Assembly (NCBI GenBank): GCA_965237715.1
Contig: CBDEGM010000003.1
Span: 519,913 to 583,912, forward strand
Reading direction: 5' to 3'
DNA from: Acidobacteriota bacterium
GTDB taxonomy: Bacteria > Acidobacteriota > UBA6911 > RPQK01 > CBDEGM01
Length of the DNA stretch: 64,000 bases
The position numbers were made by a program, and so were the translations under genes. This document shows, piece by piece, positions 9,579 to 56,290 of this stretch (its first letter is position 1; every line of letters begins with the position of its first letter). The notes under the pieces are model-generated. The model saw nothing but the letters and a program-made list of their open reading frames with translations, did no database searches and had not been told where the DNA came from.

Positions 9579-10580
9579 ATGTTCATCGACCACGCCCGGA
9601 TCTATATCAAAGCGGGGGATGGCGGAAATGGTTGTTTAGCCTTTCGGCGAGAAAAGTTTGTGCCGAGAGGAGGCCCCAGCGGCGGCGACGGCGGTAAAGG
9701 GGGCGACATCTACTTCCGCAGTACCACCCAACTCAATACCCTCCTCCCTTTTAGATACCAACAGCACTTCAAAGCTGGATCAGGCCGCCACGGGTCAGGC
9801 AACAAGCGCCGTGGCAAAGATGGTAAATCGATGATCGTTGAAGTGCCTGTCGGCACTCAGATCTGCGAGCAGGCCAGCGGTGAAATGCTTTGTGATCTTG
9901 ATCGCCCCAACCGTCTGGAGTTGGCTGCCGAAGGAGGAAGAGGCGGGCGGGGAAACGCTCACTTTGCCACTTCGAAGAACCAGGCACCCAGGCATTTCGA
10001 GGAGGGAAAACCCGGACAGGAGCGGACCCTGGTCCTGGAACTGAAAATCCTGGCCGATGTGGGGCTGATCGGTTACCCCAATGCGGGTAAGTCCACTCTT
10101 GTCTCAGCGATTTCCTCCGCCCGGCCAAAAATTGCAGATTACCCTTTCACCACTCTCACCCCCACACTCGGGGTCGTCTCCTATGGAGACTATGGGAACT
10201 TTGTGGTGGCCGACATTCCAGGCCTGATCGAAGGAGCCCATAGCGGAACTGGCCTGGGAGACCAATTCCTGCGACACGTGGAGCGGACTCGACTACTGGT
10301 CCACCTGATCGATGTCACAGAAGGAGGTGAGGAGAGTCCTGTGGGCGCTCTTAAGGCGATCAATCGAGAACTAGAGCTTTACAATCCGTCACTACTGGAG
10401 AAACAGCAGATCATCACCGCCTCCAAAGTGGACTCAGTGAATCTCAAAAAACTCAACGGTTTGCGTCGCTACTGCCGGCAGCACCGGTTAGTTTTCTGTC
10501 AAATTTCGGCCGTGACGGGAAAAGGAATCAGGGAACTGAAGGAGAGAATCGCTCAACAACTCGGAGTTACAGGGAATTGA
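9579..10580 (+). CDS. obg: GTPase Obg/CgtA
   Basis: MFIDHARIYIKAGDGGNGCLAFRREKFVPRGGPSGGDGGKGGDIYF Obg fold, followed by GYPNAGKST and DIPGLIEGA GTPase motifs. Confidence 0.9.
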   Translation: MFIDHARIYIKAGDGGNGCLAFRREKFVPRGGPSGGDGGKGGDIYFRSTTQLNTLLPFRYQQHFKAGSGRHGSGNKRRGKDGKSMIVEVPVGTQICEQASGEMLCDLDRPNRLELAAEGGRGGRGNAHFATSKNQAPRHFEEGKPGQERTLVLELKILADVGLIGYPNAGKSTLVSAISSARPKIADYPFTTLTPTLGVVSYGDYGNFVVADIPGLIEGAHSGTGLGDQFLRHVERTRLLVHLIDVTEGGEESPVGALKAINRELELYNPSLLEKQQIITASKVDSVNLKKLNGLRRYCRQHRLVFCQISAVTGKGIRELKERIAQQLGVTGN

Positions 10581-11236
10581 GGATTGGCATTCTGGGAGGA
10601 ACTTTTGATCCCATTCACCAGGGACATACCTACCTTGCCAAGGAAGTGCTGAAAATCTTCAAGCTCGATCGTGTCCTCTTTATGATATCCCGTCTCCCTC
10701 CTCATAAGCCTGGAGGGGAAATCAGCAGCCCCTTTCACCGCTATGCGATGGTGGTTCTGGCGCTGCTTGGCCAGAAGCGGCTCTACACGTCACAGTGGGA
10801 GCTGCTGCGAGGGCGCTTCTCCTATACCGTGGACACGCTTCGACACTTCGCCCGGACACAACCCCAGCATCTCTACTGCTTCATCGCAGGCAGTGATTCC
10901 CTTAAGGAGATCCACCTATGGAAAGATTATGATAGGCTTCTAAGAAAGTACACGTTGATTTTTGTGCAGCGGCCCGGTGCTAGGATCAAGCTTCAGGAGC
11001 TAACGATCCCCGGGCCTCTGAAGGGAGCGATCAAGATCGTTCAAGATGGAGAAAGGCCTGCCATCCAGGCCGGGCAATCCTTCCTGGTCTCTCTTGACCC
11101 TCCCCCCATCAGCTCAACCTCAATTCGAGAGATGATTGTCGCAGGAAAGGAACCCAGCCAGCGGTGGGTCTCTCCGTCGGTTCTCCGTTACCTCCAGAAA
11201 CACAGACTGTATGAACGAAACAAGAAGCGTTGTTAA
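10577..11236 (+). CDS. nadD: nicotinate-nucleotide adenylyltransferase
   Basis: (TTG)RIGILGGTFDPIHQGHTYLA is the HxGH nucleotidyltransferase motif. Conserved obg-nadD-rsfS order. Confidence 0.8.
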   Translation: MRIGILGGTFDPIHQGHTYLAKEVLKIFKLDRVLFMISRLPPHKPGGEISSPFHRYAMVVLALLGQKRLYTSQWELLRGRFSYTVDTLRHFARTQPQHLYCFIAGSDSLKEIHLWKDYDRLLRKYTLIFVQRPGARIKLQELTIPGPLKGAIKIVQDGERPAIQAGQSFLVSLDPPPISSTSIREMIVAGKEPSQRWVSPSVLRYLQKHRLYERNKKRC

Positions 11237-11570
11237 AAAGGTTTACCGGGCAATTGACAACAAGAAGGGGGAAGAGGTTGTGATCCTGGATATCTCGAAA
11301 ATCTCCTCCTTCACCGACTATTTTGTAATCTGCCAGGGTCGCAATCAGAAGCAGAACCAGGCTATTTGCGGTGGAATTCAGGAGAAGCTGAAGAAGGAAG
11401 AGCAGCTCCCTGCCGGCCATATCGAAGGGTACCAGGAGGCAGAGTGGATCCTCATGGATTACCTCGGCTTCGTGGTTCATATCTTCTCCCCAGAGGCTCG
11501 CCAATTCTATCAGTTGGAAAAGCTGTGGAGCGACGGAGAGATGGTGAAGTTTCGAGCCCTCAGTGCCTAA
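11211..11570 (+). CDS. rsfS: ribosome silencing factor RsfS (Iojap)
   Basis: VILDISKISSFTDYFVICQGRNQKQNQAI...DYLGFVVHIF is the RsfS/Iojap family. Overlaps the nadD 3' end by 26 nt. Confidence 0.85.
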   Translation: MNETRSVVKKVYRAIDNKKGEEVVILDISKISSFTDYFVICQGRNQKQNQAICGGIQEKLKKEEQLPAGHIEGYQEAEWILMDYLGFVVHIFSPEARQFYQLEKLWSDGEMVKFRALSA

Positions 11571-18885: not shown

Positions 18886-20235
18886 GCACGCCCAACTGGG
18901 CCAACCAGACCATCTGGACCGGGGATAACCTGCCGATCATGCGGGGCATGAACTCGGAGTCGGTAGACCTTATCTACTTAGACCCCCCCCTTCAACAGCA
19001 ATACGAACTACGCTGCTCCCATTGGCAGCAAGGCTGCTGGAGCCGAGTTCAAGGACACCTGGACCCTCACAGACATCAACGTCGAGTGGGTGAACCTGAT
19101 CGAGTCCAAGCACCCCGCTCTCCACCGTGTCCTGTTGGCGGCGATGACTTCCAGCGACAAGTCCTATCTGATCTACATGGCCGCTCGACTTCTCGAAATC
19201 AGGAGGATTCTCAAGCCCAAAGGCTCGATCTACCTGCACTGTGACCCGACCATGAGCCACTACCTCAAACTGCTCATGGACGCGGTTTTCGGTAAACGTA
19301 AATTCAGAAACGAAATCATCTGGAAGCGCAACTCATCACATAACGACTCGAAGGCATTTGGCCGCGTGGTCGACTCGCTCCTATTCTACGGCCCGCCAAT
19401 AAGGACCGATTCCGTCCGTGTCCCGCTAAGCACAGATTACACTGAGAAGTTTTACCGTCACCGGGACCACCGAGGGCTGTATCGACACGACAACATTATT
19501 CGATCCGCATCGATGGGCGAACGGCCTAACCTGACCTATGAGTACAAAGGCTTTACGCCACCCTTTGGGTGGCGAATGACCAAAGACAAGATAACGGCGC
19601 TGGACGCGGAAAACCGAATAGCTTGGTCTGCATCTGGGCGACCCTATCTGAAACGCTATTTGAGTGAGAACAAGGGGCAGGTTCCGTCGGCGATCTGGAC
19701 CGATATTTCGCCAATTTCAGGCCATGCCAAGGAACGAGTCGGCTATCCGACGCAGAAACCTGTCGCGCTACTGGCTCGCATCATCCAAGCAAGCTCCAAC
19801 ACGGGTGATATGGTTCTGGACCCGTTCTGCGGATGCGCCACGGCCTCCATTACGGCTCAGGGTTTACACAGGCAGTGGGTAGGAATCGATATCTCTCCCA
19901 AGGCCGCCGATCTAGTTCAACAGAGAATGCATGACGAACTGGGCCTATTTTCCAAGGTCATCCACCGCACGGATACTCCCAAACGCACGGACCTAGGAAC
20001 GCTCCCTAGGTACAACTCCGATGCCAATCGAAAGGAGATCTACGGCGATCAGGAAGGTCACTGCAACGGATGTCGGATCCACTTCGAGCTACGCAACTTG
20101 GAGGTAGGCCACATCATCTCCAAGGGCAAAGGCGGGACCGATCACATTGGAAACCTGCAACTTCTTTGTGGGAACTGTAATCGGATCAAAGGAGACCGTG
20201 GCATGGAGTACCTGAAAGCGAAGCTACAGATATGA
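18882..20235 (+). pseudogene. beta-class N6-adenine/N4-cytosine DNA methyltransferase fused to C-terminal HNH endonuclease; reading frame broken at a C8 homopolymer (18983..18990)
   Basis: N-terminus MSTPNWANQTIW..SVDLIYLDPP is in frame 0. With C7 instead of C8 it would read DPPFNSNTNY...KDTWT..., motif IV, and continue into the 19090..20235 frame. That frame carries HPTQKP-like GYPTQKPVALLARII, motif I VLDPFCGCATA, and the HNH motif HCNGC...HIISK...GNLQLLCGNCN. Confidence 0.7.
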
Positions 20236-21258
20236 GAAAACGACCTGACTATGGAAACGCAACCCCGGAAGACTTGGTGAGAGCTCTTCTGCGCGTGCAC
20301 CGGAAGACAGCCCGTTATCGGCAATCAGTTCCTGGTACATCAGTTGTTTCCCAGCCAAGCCCCGCACAACCCGTCTCATCTGGTGCAGAGTGTCCAGCTG
20401 GCGAAGGTTGTGCTTCCCAGCGAACTCACGAACATAGCGATCCAGATGTTTAGGACTGATCTTGTGAAAGACTCCCGTATGCGCCCTTTTGAGCATAGAC
20501 CAGAAGCTCTCGACGCCATTGGTATACGCTTTCCCTCGCACATACTCACCAATCGAGTGCTTAACCGTCTCATGATTCGGAAGGGTGTGGTAGGTCAAAG
20601 CGTCATCGGTGTAGATTTTGGTTCCCAGCTTGACGTGCTCCATAATGAAAAGGCTCATGGTCTCAGACTTGGTATTGCGGACAACTTGGGCGGAGACTTG
20701 ATTAGAGGATCGATCTTTGATCCCCGCTACAGCCATTTTGCCAGTCGGTCCACGACCACTCATCTGAGCTCTCTTGGTCTTGTTCATGTTCCTGCGCTTT
20801 CCTCCTATGTAGGTCTCATCGACTTCGACCGGGCCGGAGAAAGACGTTCCACCGTTTTTAGTTCTGGTCCAGGCTTCTCGAATTCTGTGGAGCATGAACC
20901 ATGCAGCGGGTTGACTGACCCCAATGTCGCTCGCCAACTTGGTGGAGGCGATGCTCTTCAAACTGGTCAGTTCCAGATAAATGGCCATAGCCCATTTGTG
21001 GAGCGAGAGGTTTGTTTTGGCAATGGGCGTCCCAGTGCGGACCGAGAAATACCGCTCGCAATCTCGGCACCGATACGGCATGGGCTTTCGGTTGGGCACG
21101 GTGTAGGTATTGGTGGACCCGCAATGCCCACAACACCTTTCCTCTGGCCACAGTGTCTTTTCAAACCACTCCTCAGCTGCTTTTTCGTTGGGGAACATGT
21201 CCATCAAGTGGATAATGTTGAGTTTCCTGCGTTGCCGGTTTCTTGTTTGTTTTCCCAT
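20224..21258 (-). CDS. IS1595-family (ISXO2-like) transposase
   Basis: N-terminal zinc ribbon CCGHCGS...YRCRDCERYFSVRTGT, then the ISXO2-like DDE domain (VEVDETYIGGK...). 344 aa. Confidence 0.85.
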   Translation of the reverse strand: MGKQTRNRQRRKLNIIHLMDMFPNEKAAEEWFEKTLWPEERCCGHCGSTNTYTVPNRKPMPYRCRDCERYFSVRTGTPIAKTNLSLHKWAMAIYLELTSLKSIASTKLASDIGVSQPAAWFMLHRIREAWTRTKNGGTSFSGPVEVDETYIGGKRRNMNKTKRAQMSGRGPTGKMAVAGIKDRSSNQVSAQVVRNTKSETMSLFIMEHVKLGTKIYTDDALTYHTLPNHETVKHSIGEYVRGKAYTNGVESFWSMLKRAHTGVFHKISPKHLDRYVREFAGKHNLRQLDTLHQMRRVVRGLAGKQLMYQELIADNGLSSGARAEELSPSLPGLRFHSQVVFSYL

Positions 21259-22207: not shown

Positions 22208-23275
22208 ATGGACAACATTTCATCGCTTCGAATGGAAATCAAGCAGCGTGGATGGTACAAAAAGGCGACTGGCAAAATACTTCTCGAGCTGGCGTTGCAG
22301 CTGACCGTAGCCCTGGGTGGAATAGCCGTTTTCATCATTTCAGACTCCATCTTTGTGTGCGCGTGCGCCATGCTGCTTTCCACGGCTGGTTCCATGGGAG
22401 TGGGTACTAACAGCCACACCTCGTCTCACTATGGAACAAGCGACAAGAAATGGCTAAATGAGCTTCTCACTTACTTCGGTTTTCCTGTATTTCTTGGACT
22501 GTCGGCCAGCTACTGGCGTTACATGCACGTGATTCGTCATCACCCTGCACCCAACGTCATGGGAATGGACATGGATCATGATCTCATGCCATGGTTCTCC
22601 ATGATCGAGAAACAAGTCCAGAAAACGACCGGGCTCCGCCGCTTCTACCATGAGCGAATTCAATCGATTGCATTCCCGTTCGCACTGGTGCTCAATGGTT
22701 TCAGCTTTCAAATTGCCGGGTGGCGGCACCTGCTTGCCGTTCTCCGAAATACACAGAAGCGGAAGAAGATTCACTGGATCGATCTGGGCGCCATGGTGAC
22801 CTACTGGGTGATCTGGCTGGGAGTTCCCATGGTTTTCTTTCCAGCCACGGACGTAGTGTTGTTTTATCTACTTCGGATCGGGTTGATAGGTTACGCGATG
22901 TTCGCAGTTCTAGCCCCCGGCCACTACCCCGCCGAAGCAGTCTGCCTTGCGAAGGATCACGGAGAGCAGGATTCCGTATTGCGGTTAACCGCGACTACGC
23001 TCAACTTTCGGACCGGACTGTTGGGGCGATTCATTTGCTCCGGCCTGGAGTATCAAATCGAGCATCATCTGTTCCCCGGTGTGAGTCACGTCTATTATCC
23101 GAAGATGAGCAAACTCGTGGAAGACTTCTGCCGGAAGAACAGGTATCCGTACCGCACTCTAAACTGGGACCAAGCTGTCTGGAAGAGCCTTGATGTGTTT
23201 CGTGCGCCGAAAGTGGTGCAACCTAGCCTGCAACGGACAGAGACGAAACGATCTGTCTTGGGCTTCGGGCAATAG
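22208..23275 (+). CDS. membrane fatty-acid desaturase family protein (His-box di-iron enzyme)
   Basis: Histidine boxes HVIRHH and [14 protein letters not shown], with several TM helices. Confidence 0.7.
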
Positions 23276-23291
23276 AGGAAGGACAAAGATC

Positions 23292-24953
23292 TTGTCGATA
23301 GAAGACCACTACGACGCCATCAGAGAATTGATTCATGTGGGCAAACAAAAAGGATATCTGGCTTACGACGAGGTGATCGAAGTCCTCCCTCACGACGTTT
23401 GTTCCTCGGAAAATCTGGATGACATCTTCAATCTTTTTGAGGATGCCGGGATCGAAATGATCGAACCCAGGCAGCGGTTCGAAGCAATCCAAAAGAGAAT
23501 CCTCACTAAGACTGAAACGGAAGACCAGGATCAGGATGTAGTTCTGTGGGCTAAGAGCCTGGACAAAAACCATGATGCGGTTCGAATCTATCTGAGGGAA
23601 ATGGGCACGGTGCCTCTCTTGAGCCGACAGGCCGAAGTGGAAATTGCGAAGCGGATTGAAAAGAGCCAGGAGACCGTGCTGAAAGCTTTATCTCAATCCC
23701 CGGTCGTGGTGGCCGAAGTGTTGAGGTACGGCGATGAATTGAGAAAGGACGACATCAATATCAAGGATCTGGTCAATTTCAATAATGAGGAGATCACCGA
23801 GGAGGTCCTGGTCAGGCGCCGCAAAGAGGTTTTACGTAGGATCAACAAGATCCGACACGAGGATCAGGAAGCTGCGAAAGTCCAAAAACGGTTGTGCAAG
23901 GCTCGCAAGGATGGACGGACATCTAAGAAACTTCTTTCCCAGCTGGCCCTCTATCGGATGCGCATGGAACGAGGGATCTGTCGGGTGAATCTCAATCCGG
24001 CCACTCGTGCCGAACTGGTCTGTACCATAAAAGATGCCGTAGGCCGAATCGTGGAGCTGGAGCGAGAAAGAAACAATCTGAAAAGGGTGCACGATTCCAC
24101 GCAGAGGGTCATTGAGACGAAACACACCAAGCTCCGCTTGCGGGAAATTGAAAAGGAGATGAAGGAGATCGTGGAGAAAGTCCCGGCTTCTCCTGCGAAT
24201 CTGAAAAGGACCCTAGCCACCATTAGGCAGGCAGAACTGGGAGCGGAGATCGCAAAGAAACAACTGGTGGAGGCCAACTTGCGGCTGGTCGTCTCAATCG
24301 CCAAAAAGTATGGCAAACGAGGGCTCGACTTCCTGGACCTCATCCAGGAAGGAAACATTGGGCTGATGACGGCGGTGGACAAATTCGACTACCGACGAGG
24401 CTATAAGTTTTCCACGTATGCTCACTGGTGGATTCGCCAGGGCATTACTCGAGCCATTTCTGACCAGGCCCGAACCATCCGTATTCCCGTCCACATGGTC
24501 GATGCCGTGAACAAGTTGATGCGGACATCACACTCTTTGACCCAGGAGTATGGTCGGGAGCCAACCTGGGAAGAAATCGCCAAGAAAATGGACATTCCGG
24601 TGAGCAAGGTCCGGAAAGTCTTCAAAACCACCCAAATGCCGATCTCCCTGGAGACACCCATCCGGGAAGGAGAAAACAGGTACTTGAGTGATTTTATTGA
24701 GGACCGCGGGGTGATTTCACCGGCTGACATCGCAACTGATATCCTCTTAAAGGATCAGACGGCAGCGGTCTTACAAAACTTGACTCCACGCGAAGCGCAG
24801 GTGATTCGCATGCGCTTCGGCATCGGGGATGGGAGTGAACATACCTTGGAGGAGGTGGGCCAACGTTTCTCGCTCACCCGAGAGCGGATTCGCCAGATCG
24901 AGGTCAAGGCACTGCGCAAGCTGCGGAAACCATGGCATAGTGCCCGATGCTGA
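23292..24953 (+). CDS. rpoD: RNA polymerase sigma-70 factor RpoD
   Basis: Regions 2-4: [35 protein letters not shown]..., region 4 [23 protein letters not shown] start at 23292 with an aggaagg RBS chosen over the overlapping upstream ATG; start is uncertain. Confidence 0.85.
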
Positions 24954-25025: not shown

Positions 25026-25200
25026 CACTGAGTACTCTCTTTCATAAATACGGTAACGTATGCGGATGGGGCGGGACGGGCCCATCTCTTTGTTGCTCCT
25101 CCTCGCCGATGTCTCGACATCGACTCGTCGTCGCGCCTCGATCTGGTCTGGGTCGCGCTCCCAACATACGTCATCGTATTTGTAAAAGTGAGTACTTAGT
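25026..25200. mobile_element. MITE-like palindromic element, copy 1 (AGTACT-terminated, about 175 bp)
   Basis: Ends are AGTACTCTCTTTCATAAATACG ... CGTATTTGTAAAAGTGAGTACT. The reverse complement of the interior matches the first ~150 bp of 51684..51976 at roughly 90% identity. Confidence 0.7.
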
Positions 25201-25212
25201 TGTATAGTCTGC

Positions 25213-26796
25213 ATGAGTTTCAATGTTGGAATAGTCAAGACGCGAACAGAAAGGGGTTTCTCCATGGGACTTCCGCGACCCAACAACGACGCGAGCATCT
25301 TTTTGGTCAATCCGGCACCCGCAGCGGAGCGAATTCAGTTCTCTTTTATCACTCCCAGAGCCTTGCCCGTGCTGGCGGCTGCCACGCCCGAGCGTTTCTC
25401 TGAAAGACTCAGGCTGATCGATCAAACTTTGGAAGAGTTTCCCCTTGACGAACTGCGATCTGGGGATCTCGTCGGGATCAGCATCCACACCTTTAATGCG
25501 ATTCATGGCTATGAATTGGCCCGCAAGGCCAAGAAACGAGGGGCAGTGGTGGTCTTTGGCGGGCCGCACACGTCGGTCTTCCCCGAAGAGACGCTGCGCT
25601 TCGGAGATGCAGCCGTCACGGGAGATGGTGAGGTGATTTGGGAGAAGTTGCTAGAGGACTATTGGAAAGGGTCTCTGAGCACCATTTACAAAGGGGGCCG
25701 GGTCAGCCCGGGAGATTTTAGACCGGCTCGTTGGGACCTTCTGCCTCTTGAAAAGTATCTCTGTGCCTCCATCCAAACGGTGCGCGGCTGCCCGAAACAG
25801 TGCTCCTTTTGCTCGGTTTGGGTGCAGGATGGCCGCGTCCCCAGGGTTCGCACCAACGACGCCATTTTGCAAGAGGTTCAATACCTTTATCAGGCCGGGT
25901 TTCGTCTGGTGATGTTTGCTGACGATAACTTTTATCCATACACCCTAACCGACATCGAGCAGGCCCGTTCAACGGAGGAAAGAAAACAGCTGGAAGAGGG
26001 AATGGAGCACCGTTTAGAACTCCTCCGCCGCCTGGAGTTCGAGGTCCCCAATGACATGTTTTTTTGTACGCAGATCACGATGGAGGTGGCCGATGATCCG
26101 GAATACCTGGCGGCCATGAAAAAAGCCGGAGTCGCAGGTGCGTTGATTGGCATCGAAACGATTACGGAAGAAGGGTTGAAGGCAACTCGCAAGTTTTTCA
26201 ACTCCACCGGCGAAACGCTTGCACAGAAATTGGAGACAATCCGAAGAGACGGGTTCCCGTACATCATGGGAGCTTTTATCTTCGGGATCGAAAGCGATAC
26301 GATTGAGAGCCTGGACGAGACGATCCAATTTGCGAGGGACTGCGGGATTGCACTGGCCCAGTTCATTCCGATGACTCCACTGCCTGGAACCGTGGACTTT
26401 AATTTGATGAGGAAGGGAAAAAAGGCGTTTAAAGAGATCAGGCCGGATTACGACTATTGGCTCGATCCCCAACACCCACGAATTCTTTACCACCACCCGC
26501 ATATGAAGGAGGGGCAGATTCTGGAGCGAGTCGAAAGGGCCTGGAAAGACTTCTACGGTGTCTTCTCGATCTTGAAACGGGCCAAGCGCTTTCGTTTCGT
26601 CCAGGATCCGAGGAAGTTTCTGGCCTACCTTGTGGTTTGCAGGGGGCTGCTGACGCGCTACCGCCGTTACGGGCTTTCGGCCGACAGCGCGGTACGCGGG
26701 ACCAAGCGAACATTCGCCACCTTCTTGGGGCGGCTTGCCTTGTCATTGATGAAAAGGGATCGAACCGACGTGGCTTGCCAACTACAGGACATGTGA
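25213..26796 (+). CDS. B12-binding domain-containing radical SAM protein (paralog 1)
   Basis: N-terminal cobalamin-binding-like domain (DLVGISIHTFNA...VVVFGGPH). Radical SAM CxxxCxxC as GCPKQCSFCSV. Confidence 0.75.
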   Translation: MSFNVGIVKTRTERGFSMGLPRPNNDASIFLVNPAPAAERIQFSFITPRALPVLAAATPERFSERLRLIDQTLEEFPLDELRSGDLVGISIHTFNAIHGYELARKAKKRGAVVVFGGPHTSVFPEETLRFGDAAVTGDGEVIWEKLLEDYWKGSLSTIYKGGRVSPGDFRPARWDLLPLEKYLCASIQTVRGCPKQCSFCSVWVQDGRVPRVRTNDAILQEVQYLYQAGFRLVMFADDNFYPYTLTDIEQARSTEERKQLEEGMEHRLELLRRLEFEVPNDMFFCTQITMEVADDPEYLAAMKKAGVAGALIGIETITEEGLKATRKFFNSTGETLAQKLETIRRDGFPYIMGAFIFGIESDTIESLDETIQFARDCGIALAQFIPMTPLPGTVDFNLMRKGKKAFKEIRPDYDYWLDPQHPRILYHHPHMKEGQILERVERAWKDFYGVFSILKRAKRFRFVQDPRKFLAYLVVCRGLLTRYRRYGLSADSAVRGTKRTFATFLGRLALSLMKRDRTDVACQLQDM

Positions 26797-26809
26797 TCGA
26801 GGATCAGAA

Positions 26810-28396
26810 ATGAACATTCTCCTGTACAACCCCGACAATGAAGTGACACGGAACTATATGCCACACCTCTGGATGTTCGTTCTGCAAGCATTGACTCCTC
26901 CCGAACACAAAGTGTTTCTCATCGATGGGAATGTTCAACCATTGACGGAAAAAGAAATCGCAGATTTCGTCAGGAAGAATGAGATCAAGCTCGCTGGAAT
27001 CGGTGCCATGACTCGCATGGCGGCCCGTGCTTATCGAATGGCGGATTCAATCCGCGGCGCTGGCGCCAAGGTCGTCATGGGAGGGCCCCACGTCACGGAG
27101 GTGCCGGATGAACCCTTAGGACGAGACAGCGAGCCTCGCCACGCCGATGCTGTTGCTCTCGGAGAGGCTGATAATACCTGGCCGGAAGTCGTGCAAGACG
27201 CCGAACGAGGCGAGCTCCGGGAAGTCTACTTGCCCGTGGATGCAACGGGAAAGGAGATCAAGCCGTCCCTGGAAAACTATCCACTTATACCCTGGGAGCG
27301 GTTGGATCTGGACCAGTTCGACCTCATCAAGAAGATACCTGGCTGGGTGAGCCGCGTTATGAAACGAGCGGGAATCCACCTCTGGAACAGCTTTTATGTG
27401 CTCCCCGTCGAATCCGGGCGCGGTTGTCCTTACGGCTGTGACTTTTGCACGGTGACTGGTTTCTTCGGAGACTCCATTCGGTTTCGGACAGACAAGAGTG
27501 TGGTTGATGAGCTGCTCCGCATCAAAAATCGAGCCAAGGCCGAAGGAGGAAGGGTTGCGGTCTTCTTCATCGACGACAACTTCGCCATCAACGTAAAAAG
27601 AACCAAGTCGCTGCTGCGTGAAATCATCGCGCGTAATGCCATATTGCCATGGGTGGCTCAAATCAGTGCGAATCTACTTCGTGACGAAGAGCTGGTCGAC
27701 CTGATCGCTGCCAGTGGCGGCCGTTGGATATTCATGGGACTCGAATCGATTGACACGGAGACCCTGAAAGATGTCAACAAAGGGTTCAACAAGCCGGCTC
27801 AATACGGAGCGATTATAAACCGCTTGAGACATCGAGGAATTTATGCCATCACTTCCTTCATTTTCGGTATGGACGGGGACCGCTTTGGGGTCGCAGCAAA
27901 GACACTTGAGGCCATAGAGTCTTGGCCCCCAGGCCTTCCCGTATTCGGGCTCCTCACACCTTACCCGGCCACCCCCCTTTATGATCGCCTGCTCCAACAG
28001 AACCGCCTCACACGGCCCAAGCACTGGCTCGATTTCCGTCCTTTCCGGATGGCCTTCACGCCCAAGAACATGAGCGTGGAACAGGCGGAAGCCGAAGTTC
28101 ACGAGGCCTGGGATCGACGCTACAGCTCACAGGCGATTGCGTCTGCTCTCAAAAAGATCGAGGAACGCCCGTTTGGTGAACGCCTGACCCTGTTCTTCGC
28201 GCAACTCGCCTTTCGCGGCATCTATTTTCCCCAAATGACGGCATGGCACTGGATCTCCCTGTTGTTCAGCAACCGGAGGACCTTGATGCAGTTAATGGGT
28301 GAAGGCTTAGCTGAACATAGAAAAGGTCGCACGAGCGTTGAGGCCAACGTCCTCAGGTCGGCACCGGTGGAACAGTCGCAACGCAAAGCCCACTAG
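26810..28396 (+). CDS. B12-binding domain-containing radical SAM protein (paralog 2)
   Basis: Same architecture as paralog 1. GRGCPYGCDFCTV radical-SAM cysteine triad. FFIDDNF matches FADDNF in paralog 1. Confidence 0.75.
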   Translation: MNILLYNPDNEVTRNYMPHLWMFVLQALTPPEHKVFLIDGNVQPLTEKEIADFVRKNEIKLAGIGAMTRMAARAYRMADSIRGAGAKVVMGGPHVTEVPDEPLGRDSEPRHADAVALGEADNTWPEVVQDAERGELREVYLPVDATGKEIKPSLENYPLIPWERLDLDQFDLIKKIPGWVSRVMKRAGIHLWNSFYVLPVESGRGCPYGCDFCTVTGFFGDSIRFRTDKSVVDELLRIKNRAKAEGGRVAVFFIDDNFAINVKRTKSLLREIIARNAILPWVAQISANLLRDEELVDLIAASGGRWIFMGLESIDTETLKDVNKGFNKPAQYGAIINRLRHRGIYAITSFIFGMDGDRFGVAAKTLEAIESWPPGLPVFGLLTPYPATPLYDRLLQQNRLTRPKHWLDFRPFRMAFTPKNMSVEQAEAEVHEAWDRRYSSQAIASALKKIEERPFGERLTLFFAQLAFRGIYFPQMTAWHWISLLFSNRRTLMQLMGEGLAEHRKGRTSVEANVLRSAPVEQSQRKAH

Positions 28397-31004: not shown

Positions 31005-31592
31005 TTAGGGCAGCAGAGCCAGCAGAAGAAACTTCGCCAAAAAGCCCATCTCCGGGTACCCGGCAGGTCCCAGCTCGTAATGGGTCCCCCAATTGCCAAC
31101 CATGGCAACGAACGCCACGATCAACACAGGAATACGTGACGCAAAGGCGTAGCTGAGCATGGTTTGAAAGAAAGCGGGCCACACGCTGCGTAAGATCCAG
31201 AGAGCGACCACAGAGGCAGCTACGAATCCCAGCTGTTGAGCAATCGCTCCACCGAAGCTAACGCTCACATCAGGGTTCCCAGTCAGGGCAACCACCGCTA
31301 TGCTCATCGCAATCGCTGCTACCAGCCCCAGCACAGAGAACCCAATCACTCTGCCGGCACTCTCCGGTGCATGACCACTCCGGGCCAGCTTGACGGCAAA
31401 GTAAATCCCAAAGATGGGGATCAACCAAACAATACCTACCAGTGCTCCCTGGCCCCCGGCCTCCCTGTTGAAAAGAGCCGATGGTCCACCGCCCAACTCA
31501 CCAACCAGGCGAGCAATCGTGACCGCCAGAGCGATCAATGCGGGAACCATGACGAGCCGCTTCACGTTAAGACCTGAACTAGACGTTTCCAT
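31005..31592 (-). CDS. hypothetical integral membrane protein
   Basis: Five to six predicted TM helices. No motif recognised. Confidence 0.45.
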   Translation of the reverse strand: METSSSGLNVKRLVMVPALIALAVTIARLVGELGGGPSALFNREAGGQGALVGIVWLIPIFGIYFAVKLARSGHAPESAGRVIGFSVLGLVAAIAMSIAVVALTGNPDVSVSFGGAIAQQLGFVAASVVALWILRSVWPAFFQTMLSYAFASRIPVLIVAFVAMVGNWGTHYELGPAGYPEMGFLAKFLLLALLP

Positions 31593-35902: not shown

Positions 35903-37341
35903 ATGATCGATCGAGAACTGCTCGCCCGAATCCGCCATCTTTTCCATGCCGAACATTGGAAGATCGGGACCATTGCTGATCACTTGGGGCTTCACTGGGA
36001 GACCGTGCGCCAGGCTCTCCAGACCGATCGCTTCAATCGCCAGAAGATGGAACGGCCCCGTCTGACCGATCCCTACCTTCCCTTTATCCGAGAGACCCTG
36101 GAGCGCTACCCTCGGCTTCGTGTCACGCGTCTGTTCGAGATGCTGCGCGCCCGGGGCTACACGGGCTCGGTCGTGCAGTTGCGGCGCGTGGTGGCCACGC
36201 TGCGCCCCACCCCTCGGGAGGCCTTCGCTGCGTCTGCGGACCTTCCCGGGGGAGGCGGGTCAAGCCGACTGGGCGCACTTCGGTAAAGTCCGGGTGGGCC
36301 GTGCCGAGCGCATCCTGTCCTGCTTTGTGTTCACCCCCTCCTATTCGCGGGCGCTGTTTCTGGAGTTTTGTTTTGACCAGCAAATGGAAAACTTCCTGCG
36401 CGCTCACATCCACGCCTTCGAAGACATCGGTTGTCCACGCACCATCCTGTACGACAACACCAAAAGCGTCGTGTTGGAACGTCGGGGCGAGGCTGTTCAC
36501 TTTCATCCGCGCCGGTTGGAGCTGGCCGCCCATTATCACTTTGCGCCACGCCCCTGCCACCCCTACCGGGCTTCCGAGAAAGGGCGCGTCGAAAGAGCCA
36601 TCTCCTATGTGCGCCATTCCTTCTTCGCCGCCCGCCCCTTTAGCACGCTCTCAGACTTCAACCGTCAAGCGCTCCTCTGGCGCGACCAGGTAGCGCCATC
36701 GTCGGCCCTGGCCCGGCGGCGATGGGCGCACCGTCGAGGAAGTGTGGGAAGAAGAAAAAGCCTTCCTTCTTCCCTTGCCGGCTCATCGCCTGGAAACCGA
36801 TCTGGTTCTGCCGGTCCGCTCCCGCAAAACCATCTACATCCGTTTTGATTTAAACGACTATTCGATCCCGCCTTCGGCCGTGGGCCGGCCCCTGACACTG
36901 GTGGCCTCCGAGCAGACGGTGCGCATTTTGGACGGAAGCACCGAGATCGCCCGCCATCTCCGCTCCTATGACCGCCACGACGTCCGCACCGATCCGGCTC
37001 ACCAGGAAGCGCTGCTGGCCGCCGTTCCGGAAACGGAAACCTTGCTGGACGAGGCCTTTCAGCGCGGAGAGCCCACCGGCCGCCAGACGGCCAAGCTGGT
37101 GGAACTCTTGGATCTCTATGGGGCCGAAGAGCTGCAGGCGGCGGTGCGTGAAGCCCTGCAACGGGGCACCCCGCGCGCCGCCTCGGTGGCCTTTCTGCTG
37201 GGCCGGCGCCAGCGCGCTCAGGGGCGAAAGGCGCCTCTACCCATTGAGTTGCGCCAGCGTCCCGAACTGGAGGACCTCTATGTCCAATCCCATAACCCGG
37301 AGACCTATGACGAACTGGCTTCCGATGACGACGAATCCTGA
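35903..37341 (+). pseudogene. istA: IS21-family transposase IstA, two frameshifts (near 36240 and near 36695)
   Basis: HTH N-terminus in frame 2 (35903..36286). Integrase core ...[15 protein letters not shown]...[10 protein letters not shown]... in frame 0 (36120..36848). C-terminus [19 protein letters not shown]... in frame 1 (36742..37341). Confidence 0.75.
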
Positions 37342-38089
37342 TCTGATGCAGCTTTTGCACAAGACCGGTCTGGTGACGCTCGCCGGTGAGCTGGAGGATT
37401 TTCTGGCCCGCGCCACCAAGGGGCGCTGGTCCCCCCGTCAGATCTTGGAGGAACTGGCTCGTCGGGAGCATGAGGAGCGAGCCCAACGCAGTCTCAAGCG
37501 GCGTCTGCGCCTGGCCAAGATCGGCCGCTTCAAGCCGATGGATGACTTTGACTGGAACTGGCCGACCCGGATCGACCGGGAAGTCATTGAGCGCGCCTTT
37601 ACCCTGGACTTTATCCAGGAAGGCCGCAACCTCATCTTACTGGGTACCAACGGCCTGGGAAAAACCATGATCATCAAGAATCTGGCTTACCAGTCCGTCC
37701 TGGCCGGCTACTCTGTGCTCTTTCGAACCGCCCCGGAGATTCTCGACGACCTGCAATCGGAGGCGCCGGAACTGCAGCGCCGCAAGCTGAAAAAATACGC
37801 GCGCGCGCAGGTGCTCTACCTCGATGAAGTCGGCTGTCTCACCTACGACAGTGAGGCCGCCGACCTGCTCCATGAAATCGTCAACCGGCGCTATGAGTGC
37901 CGGTCGCTCGTGCTGACCTCCAACAAAGCCTTTAAGGAGTGGAATAGCGTCTTTCCCCAATCCGGCTGCTTGATTGCGCTTCTGGACCGTCTCACCCACC
38001 ATGCTGACGTCACTGTGATGGAGGGGCAAAGCTACCGCGTGCGGGAAAGCGAGCAGGAAGCGGCCGCCCGTCGCAAGAAAACAAGATGA
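37328..38089 (+). CDS. istB: IS21-family helper ATPase IstB
   Basis: Walker [13 protein letters not shown] and Walker [12 protein letters not shown] overlaps the istA stop as ATGACGACGAATCCTGA. Confidence 0.85.
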
Positions 38090-38493
38090 GCACTCCCGTC
38101 CAGCGTCGCGCTCATATCCAGACCCTCTTGGCGGATTATCTCGAACTTCCCCATACGCCCACTCGAGCACGCCCGCCGGATCGGCGACTCGCCGCTCACT
38201 TCTATGACCGCGCTATCCCTCTGGCCACCGTCCAGGATGCCTTCCTGGTGGCGACCAGCCGCCGTCTTTTCCGAGACCCAGCGCTTCCTCGACTTTCTCC
38301 CATTCGCTCCCTTTACTACTTCCTCCCCATTGTCGAAGAGTTGCTTCAGTATCCGCTCCCCCACGGTTACGCTCAGTATCTCGAACGCAAACCACGCGCC
38401 CATCACAAGCCCAAGGAGGGGCACCCCATGGAAAAACCCGTTGATCGAGGTTCGCCACCCGGCGTGTGTTCAGAAAAGTTCAGATCCTCGTGA
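38086..38493 (+). CDS. hypothetical protein, translationally coupled to istB (ATGA overlap)
   Basis: 135-aa ORF whose ATG overlaps the istB TGA. No recognisable domain. Confidence 0.35.
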   Translation: MSTPVQRRAHIQTLLADYLELPHTPTRARPPDRRLAAHFYDRAIPLATVQDAFLVATSRRLFRDPALPRLSPIRSLYYFLPIVEELLQYPLPHGYAQYLERKPRAHHKPKEGHPMEKPVDRGSPPGVCSEKFRSS

Positions 38494-42131: not shown

Positions 42132-42254
42132 ATCACAACTCCCGGATGACTATGGATCTTGATCATGAAATTATAGCAGTGTCGTGGAATGAGGTTCTGC
42201 GTTCCCGGTTTCGGGTTCCGCGTTTTGGGTTATCATGGACCAGGGCGTGGGCCA

Positions 42255-43505
42255 ATGACCCTTACATCACTTTTCAGGCCAGCTCGGGTCTATACGTTTG
42301 TGTCGACCTTTACGCTGGCGCCCCTTCTGCTTTTCATTGCGCTTAGCACCCCTGTCGTGGTCGCTGAAGATACGAAGCCCGACCCTCGGCTTGTCGAATT
42401 GTTTGAGAATCAGGTCCGCCCCCTCCTGGCCAAGAATTGCTTCTCCTGTCACGGACCCTCACAGCAGCTCTCTTCGCTGCGGCTCGATTCCCGACAGCGG
42501 ATGTTGAAGGGCGGAAATAGGGGACCCGCCATTGTCGCCGGCCGTGCTGCGGACAGCTTGCTGATGAGGGCCATTCGCCACCAGGGACTCGAGATGCCGT
42601 TGGGCGGCGGCAAGCTCAAGGACGAAGAGATTGCAGCTATCGAGAAGTGGATCGACCTGGGAGCCCCCTGGCAGGAGAAAGTGGCCGAAGACGCTCTCGG
42701 ACCCGGTGATCCTGGCTTCTATGAAAGGATCACCAGAGAGCACTGGGCGTTTCAGCCCGTGCGTAAATCAAAAACGCCGCTACGAGATCTCTCCGGGTCA
42801 GACCATCCGGTAGACCGTTTCATCCTTACCGCATTGGAAAAGGCAGAATTGAAACCGTCTCCGCCGGCCGATCGGCGGACGCTTGTCCGGCGCTTGAGTT
42901 TCGTTCTTACAGGCCTCCCTCCTACTCCTTTGGAAGTCGACCTATTTGTCCGCGATCAATCTCCCGGGGCTTACCCGAGGCTGGTGGACCGCCTGCTGGC
43001 ATCGCCCCATTTCGGTGAGCAGTGGGCCCGGCACTGGATGGATGTGATGCGATTCGCCGAAACCCTGGGCAACGACTGGAACTATGAACTCCACGGTGCC
43101 TGGATGTACCGGGATTACCTGATCCGCGCTTTCAACCAGGATCTCCCATACGATCAGTTCGTCCGCGAACATTTCGCCGGCGACCTGCTCGAAAATCCGC
43201 GCCTCAACCTCGAAGAAGGGATCAACGAATCGGAAATCGGAACGGCTTTCTTTCGTCTGGGCGAGCAGGGTCACGATGACTGTGTACGCTTCCGGGAGAT
43301 CCGCACCGACGTTGTCGACAATCAGATCGACACTTTGGGCAAGGCGTTCCAGGGACTGACCATCGCCTGCGCGCGCTGCCATGATCACAAGCTCGACCCC
43401 ATCCCCACCAGCGACTACTATTCCCTATACGGTGTGCTGACCAGTTCCCGTCTGCTCACGCGCACCGTTGACCTGCCGGAAGTCCACACCGCTCTCAAAC
43501 AGTGA
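42255..43505 (+). CDS. PSCyt1 (CxxCH) + PSCyt2/DUF1549 domain protein, N-terminal part of a gene interrupted by in-frame TGA at 43503
   Basis: Signal peptide. CFSCHG cytochrome-like motif. DUF1549 block HFGEQWARHWMDVMRFAE. Confidence 0.6.
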   Translation: MTLTSLFRPARVYTFVSTFTLAPLLLFIALSTPVVVAEDTKPDPRLVELFENQVRPLLAKNCFSCHGPSQQLSSLRLDSRQRMLKGGNRGPAIVAGRAADSLLMRAIRHQGLEMPLGGGKLKDEEIAAIEKWIDLGAPWQEKVAEDALGPGDPGFYERITREHWAFQPVRKSKTPLRDLSGSDHPVDRFILTALEKAELKPSPPADRRTLVRRLSFVLTGLPPTPLEVDLFVRDQSPGAYPRLVDRLLASPHFGEQWARHWMDVMRFAETLGNDWNYELHGAWMYRDYLIRAFNQDLPYDQFVREHFAGDLLENPRLNLEEGINESEIGTAFFRLGEQGHDDCVRFREIRTDVVDNQIDTLGKAFQGLTIACARCHDHKLDPIPTSDYYSLYGVLTSSRLLTRTVDLPEVHTALKQ

Positions 43506-43514
43506 TTGCGGGAG

Positions 43515-45629
43515 ATGAAGCCGCAGATCCGTGAAGAATTGGCTCGCGAGTGGATCCGCGAGACGGCAACCATACCCCGCTATCTGCTGGCTGCCCACAG
43601 GGCATGGAAGGGACTTCCCCCGGAAGTGAAGGACCTCACCGAACTATCTTTGGACCGGGTTCAGGCCTGGCTGAGTCTACTGGAAAAACCCAAACCGGAG
43701 ATGGAAGATCTCCTCTACCCATGGATCCAGGTGGCGCAGTCCAGGGCCGATGTCTCCCCGGCCGAGTGGCAGAAACTGGCTGTCCGCTACCTCGAAGAGA
43801 GCCGATCCCGCGTCGCCTTTAATCGCGAGAACTTCCAGCCCTTCGGGGATTTCTCCCTGGCTGGATTCGGAAACTGGCATCCTGACGGAAATGCCTTGAG
43901 GGATGGGGCCTCGCCGAGTGGTGAATTCGCAGTAGCCAACCGCGGACCGGAAGCGGTCACTGGGGTTTTCCCTGCCGGCACTTATACGCATCCACTGTCG
44001 GAGCGCCTCAATGGAGCTCTCCGCTCGCCCCTGGTTCCCAAAGACAAGAAGTTTGTCAGTCTACGGATCCTGGGCGGCAATTTGGGTGCACGTCGCACGG
44101 TCCTGGACAACTGTATGCTCAACGAGGACTATGAGGTTCTTGATCAGGATTCTCTTGCTTGGCTTAAGATCCCGAATCGCGACGATCAGAAAGACCTGCC
44201 TTTTTACATCGAGCTGGTTACCAAGTCGGACAATCCTCGCATCCCCGGTCGCCCGGGACGCCTGAAAGCCTCGCCAGAGCAATTGGCCTCGCCCCACTCC
44301 TACTTTGGCATCACCCGAGCCGTCCTGCATGAGATCGACGAGACGCCGAAGGACGAACTGACCCATATGAACCGGCTCTTCACTGGCGAGTCTCCGGTCA
44401 ACCTCACCCTGCTCGTACACCACTACTCGGACCTTGCGAGCCGGGCGCTTGGCGTATGGGCCCGGGGTAAAGCCTCCGACGATGATGCCCGCTGGATCGG
44501 CTGGCTGTTGTATAACGGACTCGTCACCAATTCGAAAGATCTCAGCCCGCAGCTGCGAGTGCTGATTGATCAGTACCGCGCCTTGGAGTCCCGTATTACG
44601 CCGCCCAGGGTCTTCCACGGGATGGCCGATCTCGATGTCGGCTACGACTTTCCGGTGTTGCCCGGCGGCGACGCCCACCACCCCGGAAAGACCGTCCCGC
44701 GTGGTTTCCTGCAGCTCATCAGCAGATCCCGGGAGGGATTCCAGGCTTTCGGCAGCGGCCGGCGTGAGCTGGCCAGGCTGCTCGCCAACCCTGACAATCC
44801 GCTCACAGCCCGCGTCATGGTCAACCGCATCTGGCAACAACTCTTCGGGCAGGGCATCGTGGCGACTGCGGATAACTTCGGTACCTACGGCGAGCCGCCC
44901 TCACATCCCGAGTTGCTCGATTCTCTGGCGGAGCGCTTCGTTCAGGAGGGCTGGTCCGTCAAGAAGCTCATCCACTTCCTCGTGCTTTCCAGGACCTTTC
45001 AGCAATCCAGCCAGGATACACCGGAGGCAAGTCGTGTCGATCCCTTGAACCGGCTGCTGTCCCACTACCCCGTGCGCCGCCTGGGAGGAGAGTCCATACG
45101 GGATGCCATCCTCGCCGTCTCAGGTCGTCTCGACCGCTCGCTGTATGGACCAAGCATTCAGCCCTACCGGGAGCAGCCCAAACCTTACCGCAGGTTGTTC
45201 CAGGGTCCGCTCGACGGCAATGGCCGGCGCAGCATTTACCTGAAGGTCACCCGCCACCAGGGCCCGCGTTTCCTTGAAATTTTCGATTTTCCCAATCCCA
45301 CGGTGACGCGGGGAACCCGCGACGTGACCAACGTGCCAACCCAGGCCCTTGCCCTGATGAACGATCCCTTCGTACTCGACCAGGCCGGTGTCTGGGCGGA
45401 TCGTCTCCTGGCCCAGACTGTCTCCATGGAAGCACGCATCGAGTCCCTCTTTCGAACAGCGTTAGGCCGGCTTCCAGACGCTGCCGAAAGCGAGCAGTTC
45501 CAGGGGCTGACCCAAGAGCTGGCAAAGCTCCATGAGGTGGAGGACGACCAGATCCTCGCCAGCCGGGAGGTGTGGAAAGACATCTGTCACGCGGTGTTCA
45601 ACTTGAAGGAATTCATTTATACTCGATAG
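43515..45629 (+). CDS. DUF1553 (PSD1) domain protein, C-terminal part of the same interrupted gene
   Basis: Same frame as 42255..43505; TGA then TTG then ATG. DUF1553-type C-terminus, ending ...VWKDICHAVFNLKEFIY. Confidence 0.6.
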   Translation: MKPQIREELAREWIRETATIPRYLLAAHRAWKGLPPEVKDLTELSLDRVQAWLSLLEKPKPEMEDLLYPWIQVAQSRADVSPAEWQKLAVRYLEESRSRVAFNRENFQPFGDFSLAGFGNWHPDGNALRDGASPSGEFAVANRGPEAVTGVFPAGTYTHPLSERLNGALRSPLVPKDKKFVSLRILGGNLGARRTVLDNCMLNEDYEVLDQDSLAWLKIPNRDDQKDLPFYIELVTKSDNPRIPGRPGRLKASPEQLASPHSYFGITRAVLHEIDETPKDELTHMNRLFTGESPVNLTLLVHHYSDLASRALGVWARGKASDDDARWIGWLLYNGLVTNSKDLSPQLRVLIDQYRALESRITPPRVFHGMADLDVGYDFPVLPGGDAHHPGKTVPRGFLQLISRSREGFQAFGSGRRELARLLANPDNPLTARVMVNRIWQQLFGQGIVATADNFGTYGEPPSHPELLDSLAERFVQEGWSVKKLIHFLVLSRTFQQSSQDTPEASRVDPLNRLLSHYPVRRLGGESIRDAILAVSGRLDRSLYGPSIQPYREQPKPYRRLFQGPLDGNGRRSIYLKVTRHQGPRFLEIFDFPNPTVTRGTRDVTNVPTQALALMNDPFVLDQAGVWADRLLAQTVSMEARIESLFRTALGRLPDAAESEQFQGLTQELAKLHEVEDDQILASREVWKDICHAVFNLKEFIYTR

Positions 45630-56102: not shown

Positions 56103-56290
56103 GGGTGGCAGCCGTCTTATGAGCTGGAAGAAATGGTAGATGATTTTCTTCGAGAGCTGCGCGAGAATCCCCAGAGATATGAGTCACCTCAAAAGCCCCA
56201 AGTCGCCACATAGCAGCGAGTGACGGAAGCGCGCTTCCAAGATGGTCCTTGCTTGAAAAGGGATTTCCTATGTGCCAGGGTATCGGAGGA

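Follow-up and report, generated by a model that had tools for sequence, protein, structure and literature searches.

Some of the most demanding C-H functionalisations on record are the work of class-B radical S-adenosylmethionine (SAM) enzymes, and for the majority of families in this class no reaction has been assigned. The described systems closest to the proteins considered here are AprD4, a diol dehydratase (PDB 6FD2); MgmA, an archaeal glutamine C-methyltransferase whose substrate is methyl-coenzyme M reductase (MCR); BchE, the anaerobic Mg-protoporphyrin IX monomethyl ester cyclase, whose chemistry is non-methylating; and class-B enzymes that methylate, cyclise or desaturate the inert chains of archaeal and hopanoid lipids (PMC11214058; 10.1101/2025.10.20.683597; PMC13459092). 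The present work concerns two neighbouring genes, rSAM1 and rSAM2, in a 64,000-nucleotide stretch of DNA (the window) from an uncultured Acidobacteriota bacterium of the UBA6911 lineage (assembly GCA_965237715.1, contig CBDEGM010000003.1, positions 519,913 to 583,912 of the forward strand). As far as sequence comparison can tell, they represent two families of a known kind that have no characterised orthologue, and are neither a duplicated pair nor a new kind of system; both families appear to be ancient and to have been joined in this lineage only. Our confidence in this structural and evolutionary description of the two enzymes is high.

The architecture proposed in a first-pass annotation of this DNA, a cobalamin-binding-like N-terminal domain followed by a CxxxCxxC radical-SAM core, is borne out by domain profiles and by fold: in both proteins the B12-binding signature PF02310 lies above its gathering score of 32.1 bits and Radical_SAM PF04055 above its cut-off of 29.5 bits (individual scores are in Table 1). 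Within the B12 domain the motifs DLVGIS, HTFNA, FGGPH and VxGDxE are conserved in rSAM1, and GIGxMT, GGPH and GExD are invariant in rSAM2. The three cysteines of the cluster motif are likewise invariant in alignments of orthologues, C176, C180 and C183 (510-aa numbering) across 55 rSAM1 sequences and C206, C210 and C213 across 57 rSAM2 sequences. As these are the only three cysteines of rSAM2, and as rSAM1 has no further invariant one, an auxiliary cysteine cluster is absent from both and the two appear to be single-cluster enzymes. Identity with Tes (GDGT-MAS) or Mss was considered and rejected by description: those are radical-SAM proteins that have no B12 domain and carry additional Fe-S clusters, whereas both proteins here have the domain and lack extra cysteine clusters.

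Comparison with solved structures, made by sequence search and by running Foldseek on AlphaFold 2 models (predicted local distance difference test scores of 86 for rSAM1 and 80 for rSAM2), places both proteins among the class-B enzymes. Each model matched AprD4, MgmA, TsrM, CysS and TokK at E values of 1e-15 to 1e-9 and a probability of 1.00, with OxsB matched additionally by rSAM2; template modelling (TM) scores for the class-B matches, normalised to the target, were 0.37-0.69. AprD4 is the top match of both models (E 3e-14 and 2e-15, target-normalised TM score 0.67-0.69), but identity is only 16% and its NCBIfam profile gives 25 and 35 bits where the cut-off is 500. Since AprD4 has a B12-like domain and is not known to use cobalamin, the use of cobalamin by rSAM1 and rSAM2, which is predicted from the presence of the domain, calls for caution. 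MgmA, second in rank for both models, shares with them the N-terminal B12 domain and the single-cluster radical-SAM barrel, and its structure, 9CCB (PMC11796369), is also the nearest by sequence (E 3e-6 and 5e-12 for the two proteins). It differs, however, in being about 100 residues shorter, without the conserved C-terminal helical region, in its identity of only 19%, and in having a substrate, MCR, that is absent from bacteria.

None of the curated NCBIfam families reached its cut-off for either protein, and the claim that no characterised family accounts for them therefore stands: the profiles for BchE, HpnR, PhpK and the others all fall far short, and clear orthology of the pair to any characterised family was not found. 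The scores, given for rSAM1 and then rSAM2, are 45.9 and 98.3 bits for BchE (TIGR02026, cut-off 481), 68 and 59 for TIGR04013 (cut-off 251; the best NCBIfam score of rSAM1), 43.2 and 80.0 for PhpK (TIGR04479, cut-off 600), 65.5 and 73.4 for the ladderane-type family TIGR04072 (cut-off 360), 45.5 and 71.7 for MgmA (TIGR04014, cut-off 360), 65.7 and 68.4 for HpnJ (TIGR03471, cut-off 577.6), 49.9 and 60.6 for HpnR (TIGR04367, cut-off 650) and 55 and 22 for ApyD (cut-off 750), while rSAM_ocin_1 (TIGR03975) reached 51.6 bits against 281.85. BchE, the best match of rSAM2 (E 5e-28), aligns over some 400 residues (residues 11-425 with model positions 15-415 of 497), but the photosynthesis or tetrapyrrole context of BchE is absent at this locus. 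When 87 representatives of the nearest rSAM1 relatives, taken from clusters at 50% identity, were scored in the same way, again no curated family was reached, the best being HpnJ at E 5e-38. HpnR, HpnJ and TIGR04072, and by description rather than by sequence or profile comparison GrsA/GrsB, Gmm, Cgm and Ted, resemble rSAM1 and rSAM2 in superfamily and domain order, and some of them stand alone; the hopanoid genes, in contrast, usually lie in hpn clusters, and no hpn genes occur near the pair.

The two proteins had been described as tandem duplicates, a label that misleads, because the two genes belong to old, separate families that became neighbours in this lineage alone. rSAM1 and rSAM2 are 24% identical over nearly their full length (E 2e-28), and identity between the two families is 23-30%, as against 51-99% (median 66%) within the rSAM1 family and 57-97% (median 67%) within the rSAM2 family. 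A paralogue family with a motif of its own (CPKHCSFCSVWRTD) is closer to rSAM1, at 43-48% identity, so that rSAM1 and rSAM2 are not each other's closest relatives and a recent tandem duplication is ruled out. In a library clustered at 50% identity the rSAM1 orthologues form one cluster, followed by about ten full-length paralogue clusters at 34-49% and then by a long tail at 30-37%. Among distant relatives at 32-34% identity we noted C-terminal fusions to a PLD/cardiolipin-synthase-like domain (P0410), to GNAT (P0418) and to STAS (P0383). At the loci of the paralogues (L047-L081, match at about 10001-11450), which come from the same acidobacterial orders as rSAM1, the gene immediately upstream, in the same orientation, encodes a BlaR1-like M56 membrane protein in seven cases, and a 124-aa open reading frame (ORF) is likewise upstream in five.

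Both families are well conserved, and where a radical-SAM gene lies near rpoD the two can be compared directly. Identity to the window is 83% for rSAM2 and 57% for RpoD at one locus (L089), 66% and 49% at a second (L136), and 69% for rSAM1 and 52% for RpoD at a third (L029); two further loci with rpoD beside a radical-SAM gene (L108 and L111) give 65% versus 41% and 63% versus 62%. The radical-SAM proteins are thus at least as conserved as RpoD, which may reflect unusually strong constraint or else gene transfer within the phylum.

The distribution of the families points to one phylum. The genomic context of rSAM1 was taken from 80 species-level genome loci, the best 80 of 314, of which 45 have rSAM1 orthologues. 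All 80 are metagenome-assembled genomes (MAGs); 78 are titled Acidobacteriota and the other two look mis-binned. Carrier lineages include Vicinamibacterales, Bryobacterales, Terriglobia, UBA6911 and Marinacidobacterales, and the species of the window itself has no entry among the species representatives, where the best rSAM1 match is 75% identical. For rSAM2, which has a recorded match of 100% identity (P0121), the named relatives are from Acidobacteriota, Terriglobales and Ca. Sulfotelmatobacter, with one labelled Aminicenantes; its soil clade (Terriglobales, Ca. Sulfotelmatobacter) is very abundant in soil and peat MAGs and forms clusters with hundreds of metagenome members. Neither the names of cluster members nor a search seeded with a soil orthologue gave a cultured carrier, all sources being MAGs or metagenomes. 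On this showing both families are essentially confined to Acidobacteriota.

Within these genomes the two genes normally stand alone, and their adjacency appears to be specific to this genus-level lineage. No rSAM2 orthologue was found within 10 kb in any of the 45 loci with rSAM1 orthologues; conversely, rSAM1 is absent from all 80 metagenome loci examined for rSAM2 and from four of five additional assembly contexts. The only other occurrence of the pair is in a relative of about 90% identity (L086), which has the same junction sequence between different flanks, a mandelate-racemase-like gene upstream, uvrA downstream and copies of IS481 around. In an 83%-identical relative a transposase separates rpoD from the rSAM2 gene behind it, and rSAM1 is missing; rpoD lies near rSAM2 in five loci altogether, and a gene for an RNA-binding protein of the RNA recognition motif (RRM) type in seven. 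rSAM2 probably stood beside rpoD first, and rSAM1 would have joined it later, within a lineage rich in insertion sequences (IS). The independent distribution shows that neither gene needs the other, and the conserved junction suggests that they are co-expressed here. Among other neighbours of rSAM2 (clustered over 88 loci), EF-G, glyQS, recO, recQ and hemE/hemY are each limited to single clades; the last are found in a Terriglobales soil clade (L127, L133, L138 and L168, four of the 88 loci), where two genes convergent to rSAM2 and 0.2-3 kb downstream of it were read by eye from the sequence as hemE and a hemY-like protoporphyrinogen/coproporphyrinogen oxidase.

Table 1. Features of the rSAM1-rSAM2 locus and of the genes preceding it (positions in the window)
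Feature	Position	Strand	Basis and details
Fatty-acid desaturase	22232-23275		Upstream of the pair; Pfam 98 bits
RpoD	23292-24953		Upstream of the pair; NCBIfam 571.8 bits, cut-off 555
Promoter-like site TTGTAA-17-TATAGT	25180-25208	+	Consensus match only
Shine-Dalgarno AAGGGG upstream of rSAM1	25251-25256	+	Consensus match only
rSAM1, class-B radical-SAM protein, 510 aa	25264-26796	+	ORF, Pfam, homologue N-termini, gene call
rSAM1 Rossmann-type B12-binding domain PF02310	25351-25647	+	Residues 47-145 (527-aa reading), 36.0 bits
rSAM1 radical-SAM core PF04055	25774-26334	+	Residues 188-374, 68.9 bits
rSAM1 cluster motif C-x3-C-x2-C (GCPKQCSFC)	25789-25812	+	
Intergenic spacer rSAM1/rSAM2, 13 nt	26797-26809	+	Putative Shine-Dalgarno GAGGA at 26799-26803
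rSAM2, class-B radical-SAM protein, 528 aa	26810-28396	+	ORF, Pfam
rSAM2 N-terminal B12-binding domain PF02310	26849-27190	+	Residues 14-127, 43.8 bits
rSAM2 radical-SAM core PF04055	27410-27880	+	Residues 201-357, 64.0 bits
rSAM2 cluster motif C-x3-C-x2-C (GCPYGCDFC)	27425-27448	+	

The coordinates of the locus are collected in Table 1. The pair had been introduced as two adjacent proteins of about 527 residues, and the two neighbouring ORFs are indeed present on the same strand (25213-26796, 527 aa, and 26810-28396, 528 aa, both +), but the start of the first was probably placed 17 codons too early. The most likely start of rSAM1 is the ATG at 25264, because the N-termini of its homologues coincide with it, an independent gene call gives the same 510-aa protein, a Shine-Dalgarno sequence and a promoter-like site precede it, and the frame from 25213 to 25263 is interrupted by a stop codon in the 90%-identical relative. 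The stretch 25227-25256 is kept in that relative. The short spacer with its GAGGA implies that rSAM1 and rSAM2 are probably co-transcribed, and no terminator-like site was found between them. An Rfam scan of the whole window gave no match at the gathering score, and so no riboswitch for cobalamin or SAM. At 0.54, the GC content of the pair is in line with that of the flanks.

Upstream of the pair lie, in order, a DNA methyltransferase-HNH fusion, an IS1595 transposase on the opposite strand, endonuclease III, the desaturase and RpoD, the last two where they had been reported, and downstream is a convergent gene for a metallo-beta-lactamase-rhodanese protein. Nearby methyltransferase, peptide or cofactor-pathway partners are lacking, again in agreement with the first reading.

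What, then, might these enzymes do? In the mechanism that we propose, the [4Fe-4S] cluster bound by the CxxxCxxC motif would cleave SAM reductively, the resulting 5'-deoxyadenosyl radical would abstract a hydrogen from an unactivated sp3 carbon, and cobalamin held in the N-terminal Rossmann domain would deliver a methyl group in a C-methylation or support some other C-C bond or ring formation. We would put even chances on a reaction that methylates an unactivated carbon or performs other C-C chemistry there. The lack of cluster context, the restriction to one phylum and a conservation at least equal to that of the adjacent RpoD favour, as substrate, a conserved cellular molecule and not a cluster-encoded natural product. 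The candidate that we prefer, tentatively, by analogy and at less than even odds, is a lipid, for instance the alkyl chains of acidobacterial membrane lipids of the iso-diabolic-acid or branched glycerol dialkyl glycerol tetraether (brGDGT) type: such lipids are made by Acidobacteria, enzymes for their coupling and methylation are unassigned, and there are class-B precedents for lipid substrates. In particular, the tail-coupling enzyme is not assigned in Acidobacteria, where no Mss was found and Tes was present in only 3 of 14 producers (PMC13159169), and a paper on the pathway leaves the C5/C6 methylations aside while proposing B12-dependent radical-SAM (Grs-like) homologues for the rings (PMC10087280). 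Our literature search found no paper that names either of the present families or an enzyme of brGDGT methylation.

A lipid substrate receives some encouragement from the high rank of the ladderane, HpnJ and HpnR profiles among the sub-threshold NCBIfam matches and from the abundance of rSAM2 in Terriglobales MAGs of soil and peat, and a faint hint of phospholipid chemistry may be seen in the PLD/cardiolipin-synthase-like fusion of the distant relative mentioned above. A considerable number of observations weigh on the other side. The sub-threshold matches include the non-lipid families BchE, MgmA and PhpK as well, and so do not discriminate, and the remaining distant fusions, GNAT and STAS, are not to lipid domains. 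Neither protein has a hydrophobic window of transmembrane grade, and the hydrophobic moments and amphipathicity of the C-terminal helices are unremarkable, with no clear membrane-binding feature. No lipid gene is conserved beside either family in the loci compared, nor indeed any gene at all: the commonest shared family near rSAM1 occurs in 11 of the 45 loci, its shared neighbours being an unrelated assortment of PSD1/DUF1501 proteins, a transposase, an amidohydrolase, an aminotransferase and a permease, and the commonest near rSAM2, likewise unrelated or of housekeeping type, in 7 of 88. The fatty-acid desaturase upstream, which had been offered as a pointer to lipids, has no comparative support, since a tblastn scan of 169 related loci of both families found it in none; its adjacency is unique to this genome and provides no evidence for a lipid role. 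rSAM1 is also patchy, with orthologues in about 45 species-level genomes, MAGs only, among the best 80 of 314 loci, and none of those 80 loci is from a cultured producer of iso-diabolic acid. Finally, by analogy with AprD4 the B12-like domain need not bind cobalamin, and conservation equal to or above that of RpoD would be more typical of an enzyme acting on a macromolecule.

This last point leads to an alternative that we regard as rather unlikely, namely that the target of each enzyme is a conserved macromolecule (a protein of the ribosome or another core protein, rRNA or tRNA), for which MgmA and Mmp10, class-B methylases of proteins, and stand-alone RNA-modifying radical-SAM enzymes would be the models. 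The solitary position of both genes amid changing, largely housekeeping neighbours, which is common among genes for RNA and protein modification, the degree of conservation relative to neighbouring RpoD (L089, L136, L029), the identification of a protein methylase as the best solved-structure sequence match and the occasional proximity of rSAM2 to rpoD and to the RRM-type gene would all be in keeping with such a role. The MgmA profile, however, yields only about 45 and 72 bits of the 360 required, no conserved partner or substrate gene is present, and a universal target would leave both the restriction to one phylum and the patchiness of rSAM1 unexplained. To our knowledge, no bacterial class-B enzyme modifies core proteins or RNA.

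Quite unlikely, in our view, is a tetrapyrrole, another cofactor or a quinone as substrate, which would imply BchE-like anaerobic ring chemistry or the C-methylation of a cofactor under low oxygen. The position of BchE at the head of the NCBIfam matches of rSAM2 (98 bits, E 5e-28) and the hemY-like and hemE genes just downstream of rSAM2 in four Terriglobales soil contigs might be read in this way, and stand-alone, highly conserved genes would suit a role in core cofactor metabolism; yet the BchE score reaches one fifth of the required 481 bits (and just 46 bits for rSAM1), the hem neighbours are convergent, limited to one closely related clade (4 of 88 loci) and absent from this window, and the 64-kb window contains no tetrapyrrole genes.

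It is highly improbable that a recent duplication gave rise to the pair and that its products tailor a secondary metabolite or a ribosomally synthesised and post-translationally modified peptide (RiPP), even though the genes are adjacent and probably co-transcribed and class-B enzymes are common in RiPP and antibiotic pathways (sub-threshold matches include ApyD, rSAM_ocin_1 and KedN5), for the proteins are 24% identical members of separate orthologue families found side by side elsewhere only in the 90% relative, there are no biosynthetic genes near the pair, and identities of 60-75% across orders are atypical of natural-product tailoring enzymes. The earlier suggestion of secondary-metabolite tailoring is thus an unlikely one, there being no cluster context and both families being conserved like housekeeping genes. 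Small ORFs in both flanking intergenic regions are unconvincing as RiPP precursors and are not common to relatives; the 86-aa ORF that follows rpoD at L089 differs in sequence from the overlapping 86-aa ORF of the window.

To return to the preferred lipid substrate, its most specific form, in which one or both families, perhaps together with the paralogue at 43-48% identity, build or tailor iso-diabolic-acid or brGDGT lipids, is distinctly unlikely; the candidate reactions would be the C5/C6 methylations, the formation of cyclopentane rings or tail-to-tail coupling. Nothing that ties either family directly to brGDGT biosynthesis was found. Acidobacteriota are nevertheless the main suspected source of brGDGTs, whose patterns of methylation and cyclisation underpin proxies for palaeotemperature and pH, and were such a role to prove correct, the two genes would provide molecular markers with which to track the producers behind a widely used palaeothermometer. 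Whatever the substrate, the unusual degree of conservation, the confinement to Acidobacteriota and the abundance in soil and peat metagenomes make it probable that the two families have a target of central importance to the phylum.

The rest of the window has the look of ordinary chromosome, with genes for citrate synthase, TrkAH, Obg, PSCyt/PSD1/DUF1501 proteins, TPR and FG-GAP proteins and a fused pyruvate dehydrogenase E1, among which several features deserve mention. The DNA methyltransferase-HNH fusion (N6/N4 type; 19090-20235, +) overlaps the end of the IS1595 transposase gene (20224-21258, -) by 12 bp, and this stretch may be a mobile methylase-nuclease module. An IS21-type element occupies 36000-38100, with an IstB ATPase at 36968-38089, a gene with a Mu-transposase C-terminal domain upstream of it and a GC content of up to 0.63; together with IS1595 it marks a rearrangement-prone region. 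Between 31005 and 35052 on the minus strand are a 1093-aa ORF and a 195-aa ORF (31005-31592), both without a Pfam or NCBIfam match, in a region whose AT skew, +0.2 on the plus strand, is unusually strong. A PSCyt1/PSCyt2 ORF (42189-43505, +) and a PSD1 ORF (43506-45629, +) lie in one frame, separated by an in-frame TGA at 43503-43505; in relatives PSCyt1-PSCyt2-PSD1 is a single protein of about 900 residues, and the TGA could indicate a pseudogene, a sequencing error or a recoded stop. The fused E1, at 56249-58318 (+), is a 689-aa protein that joins the alpha and beta subunits of a pyruvate/2-oxoacid dehydrogenase.

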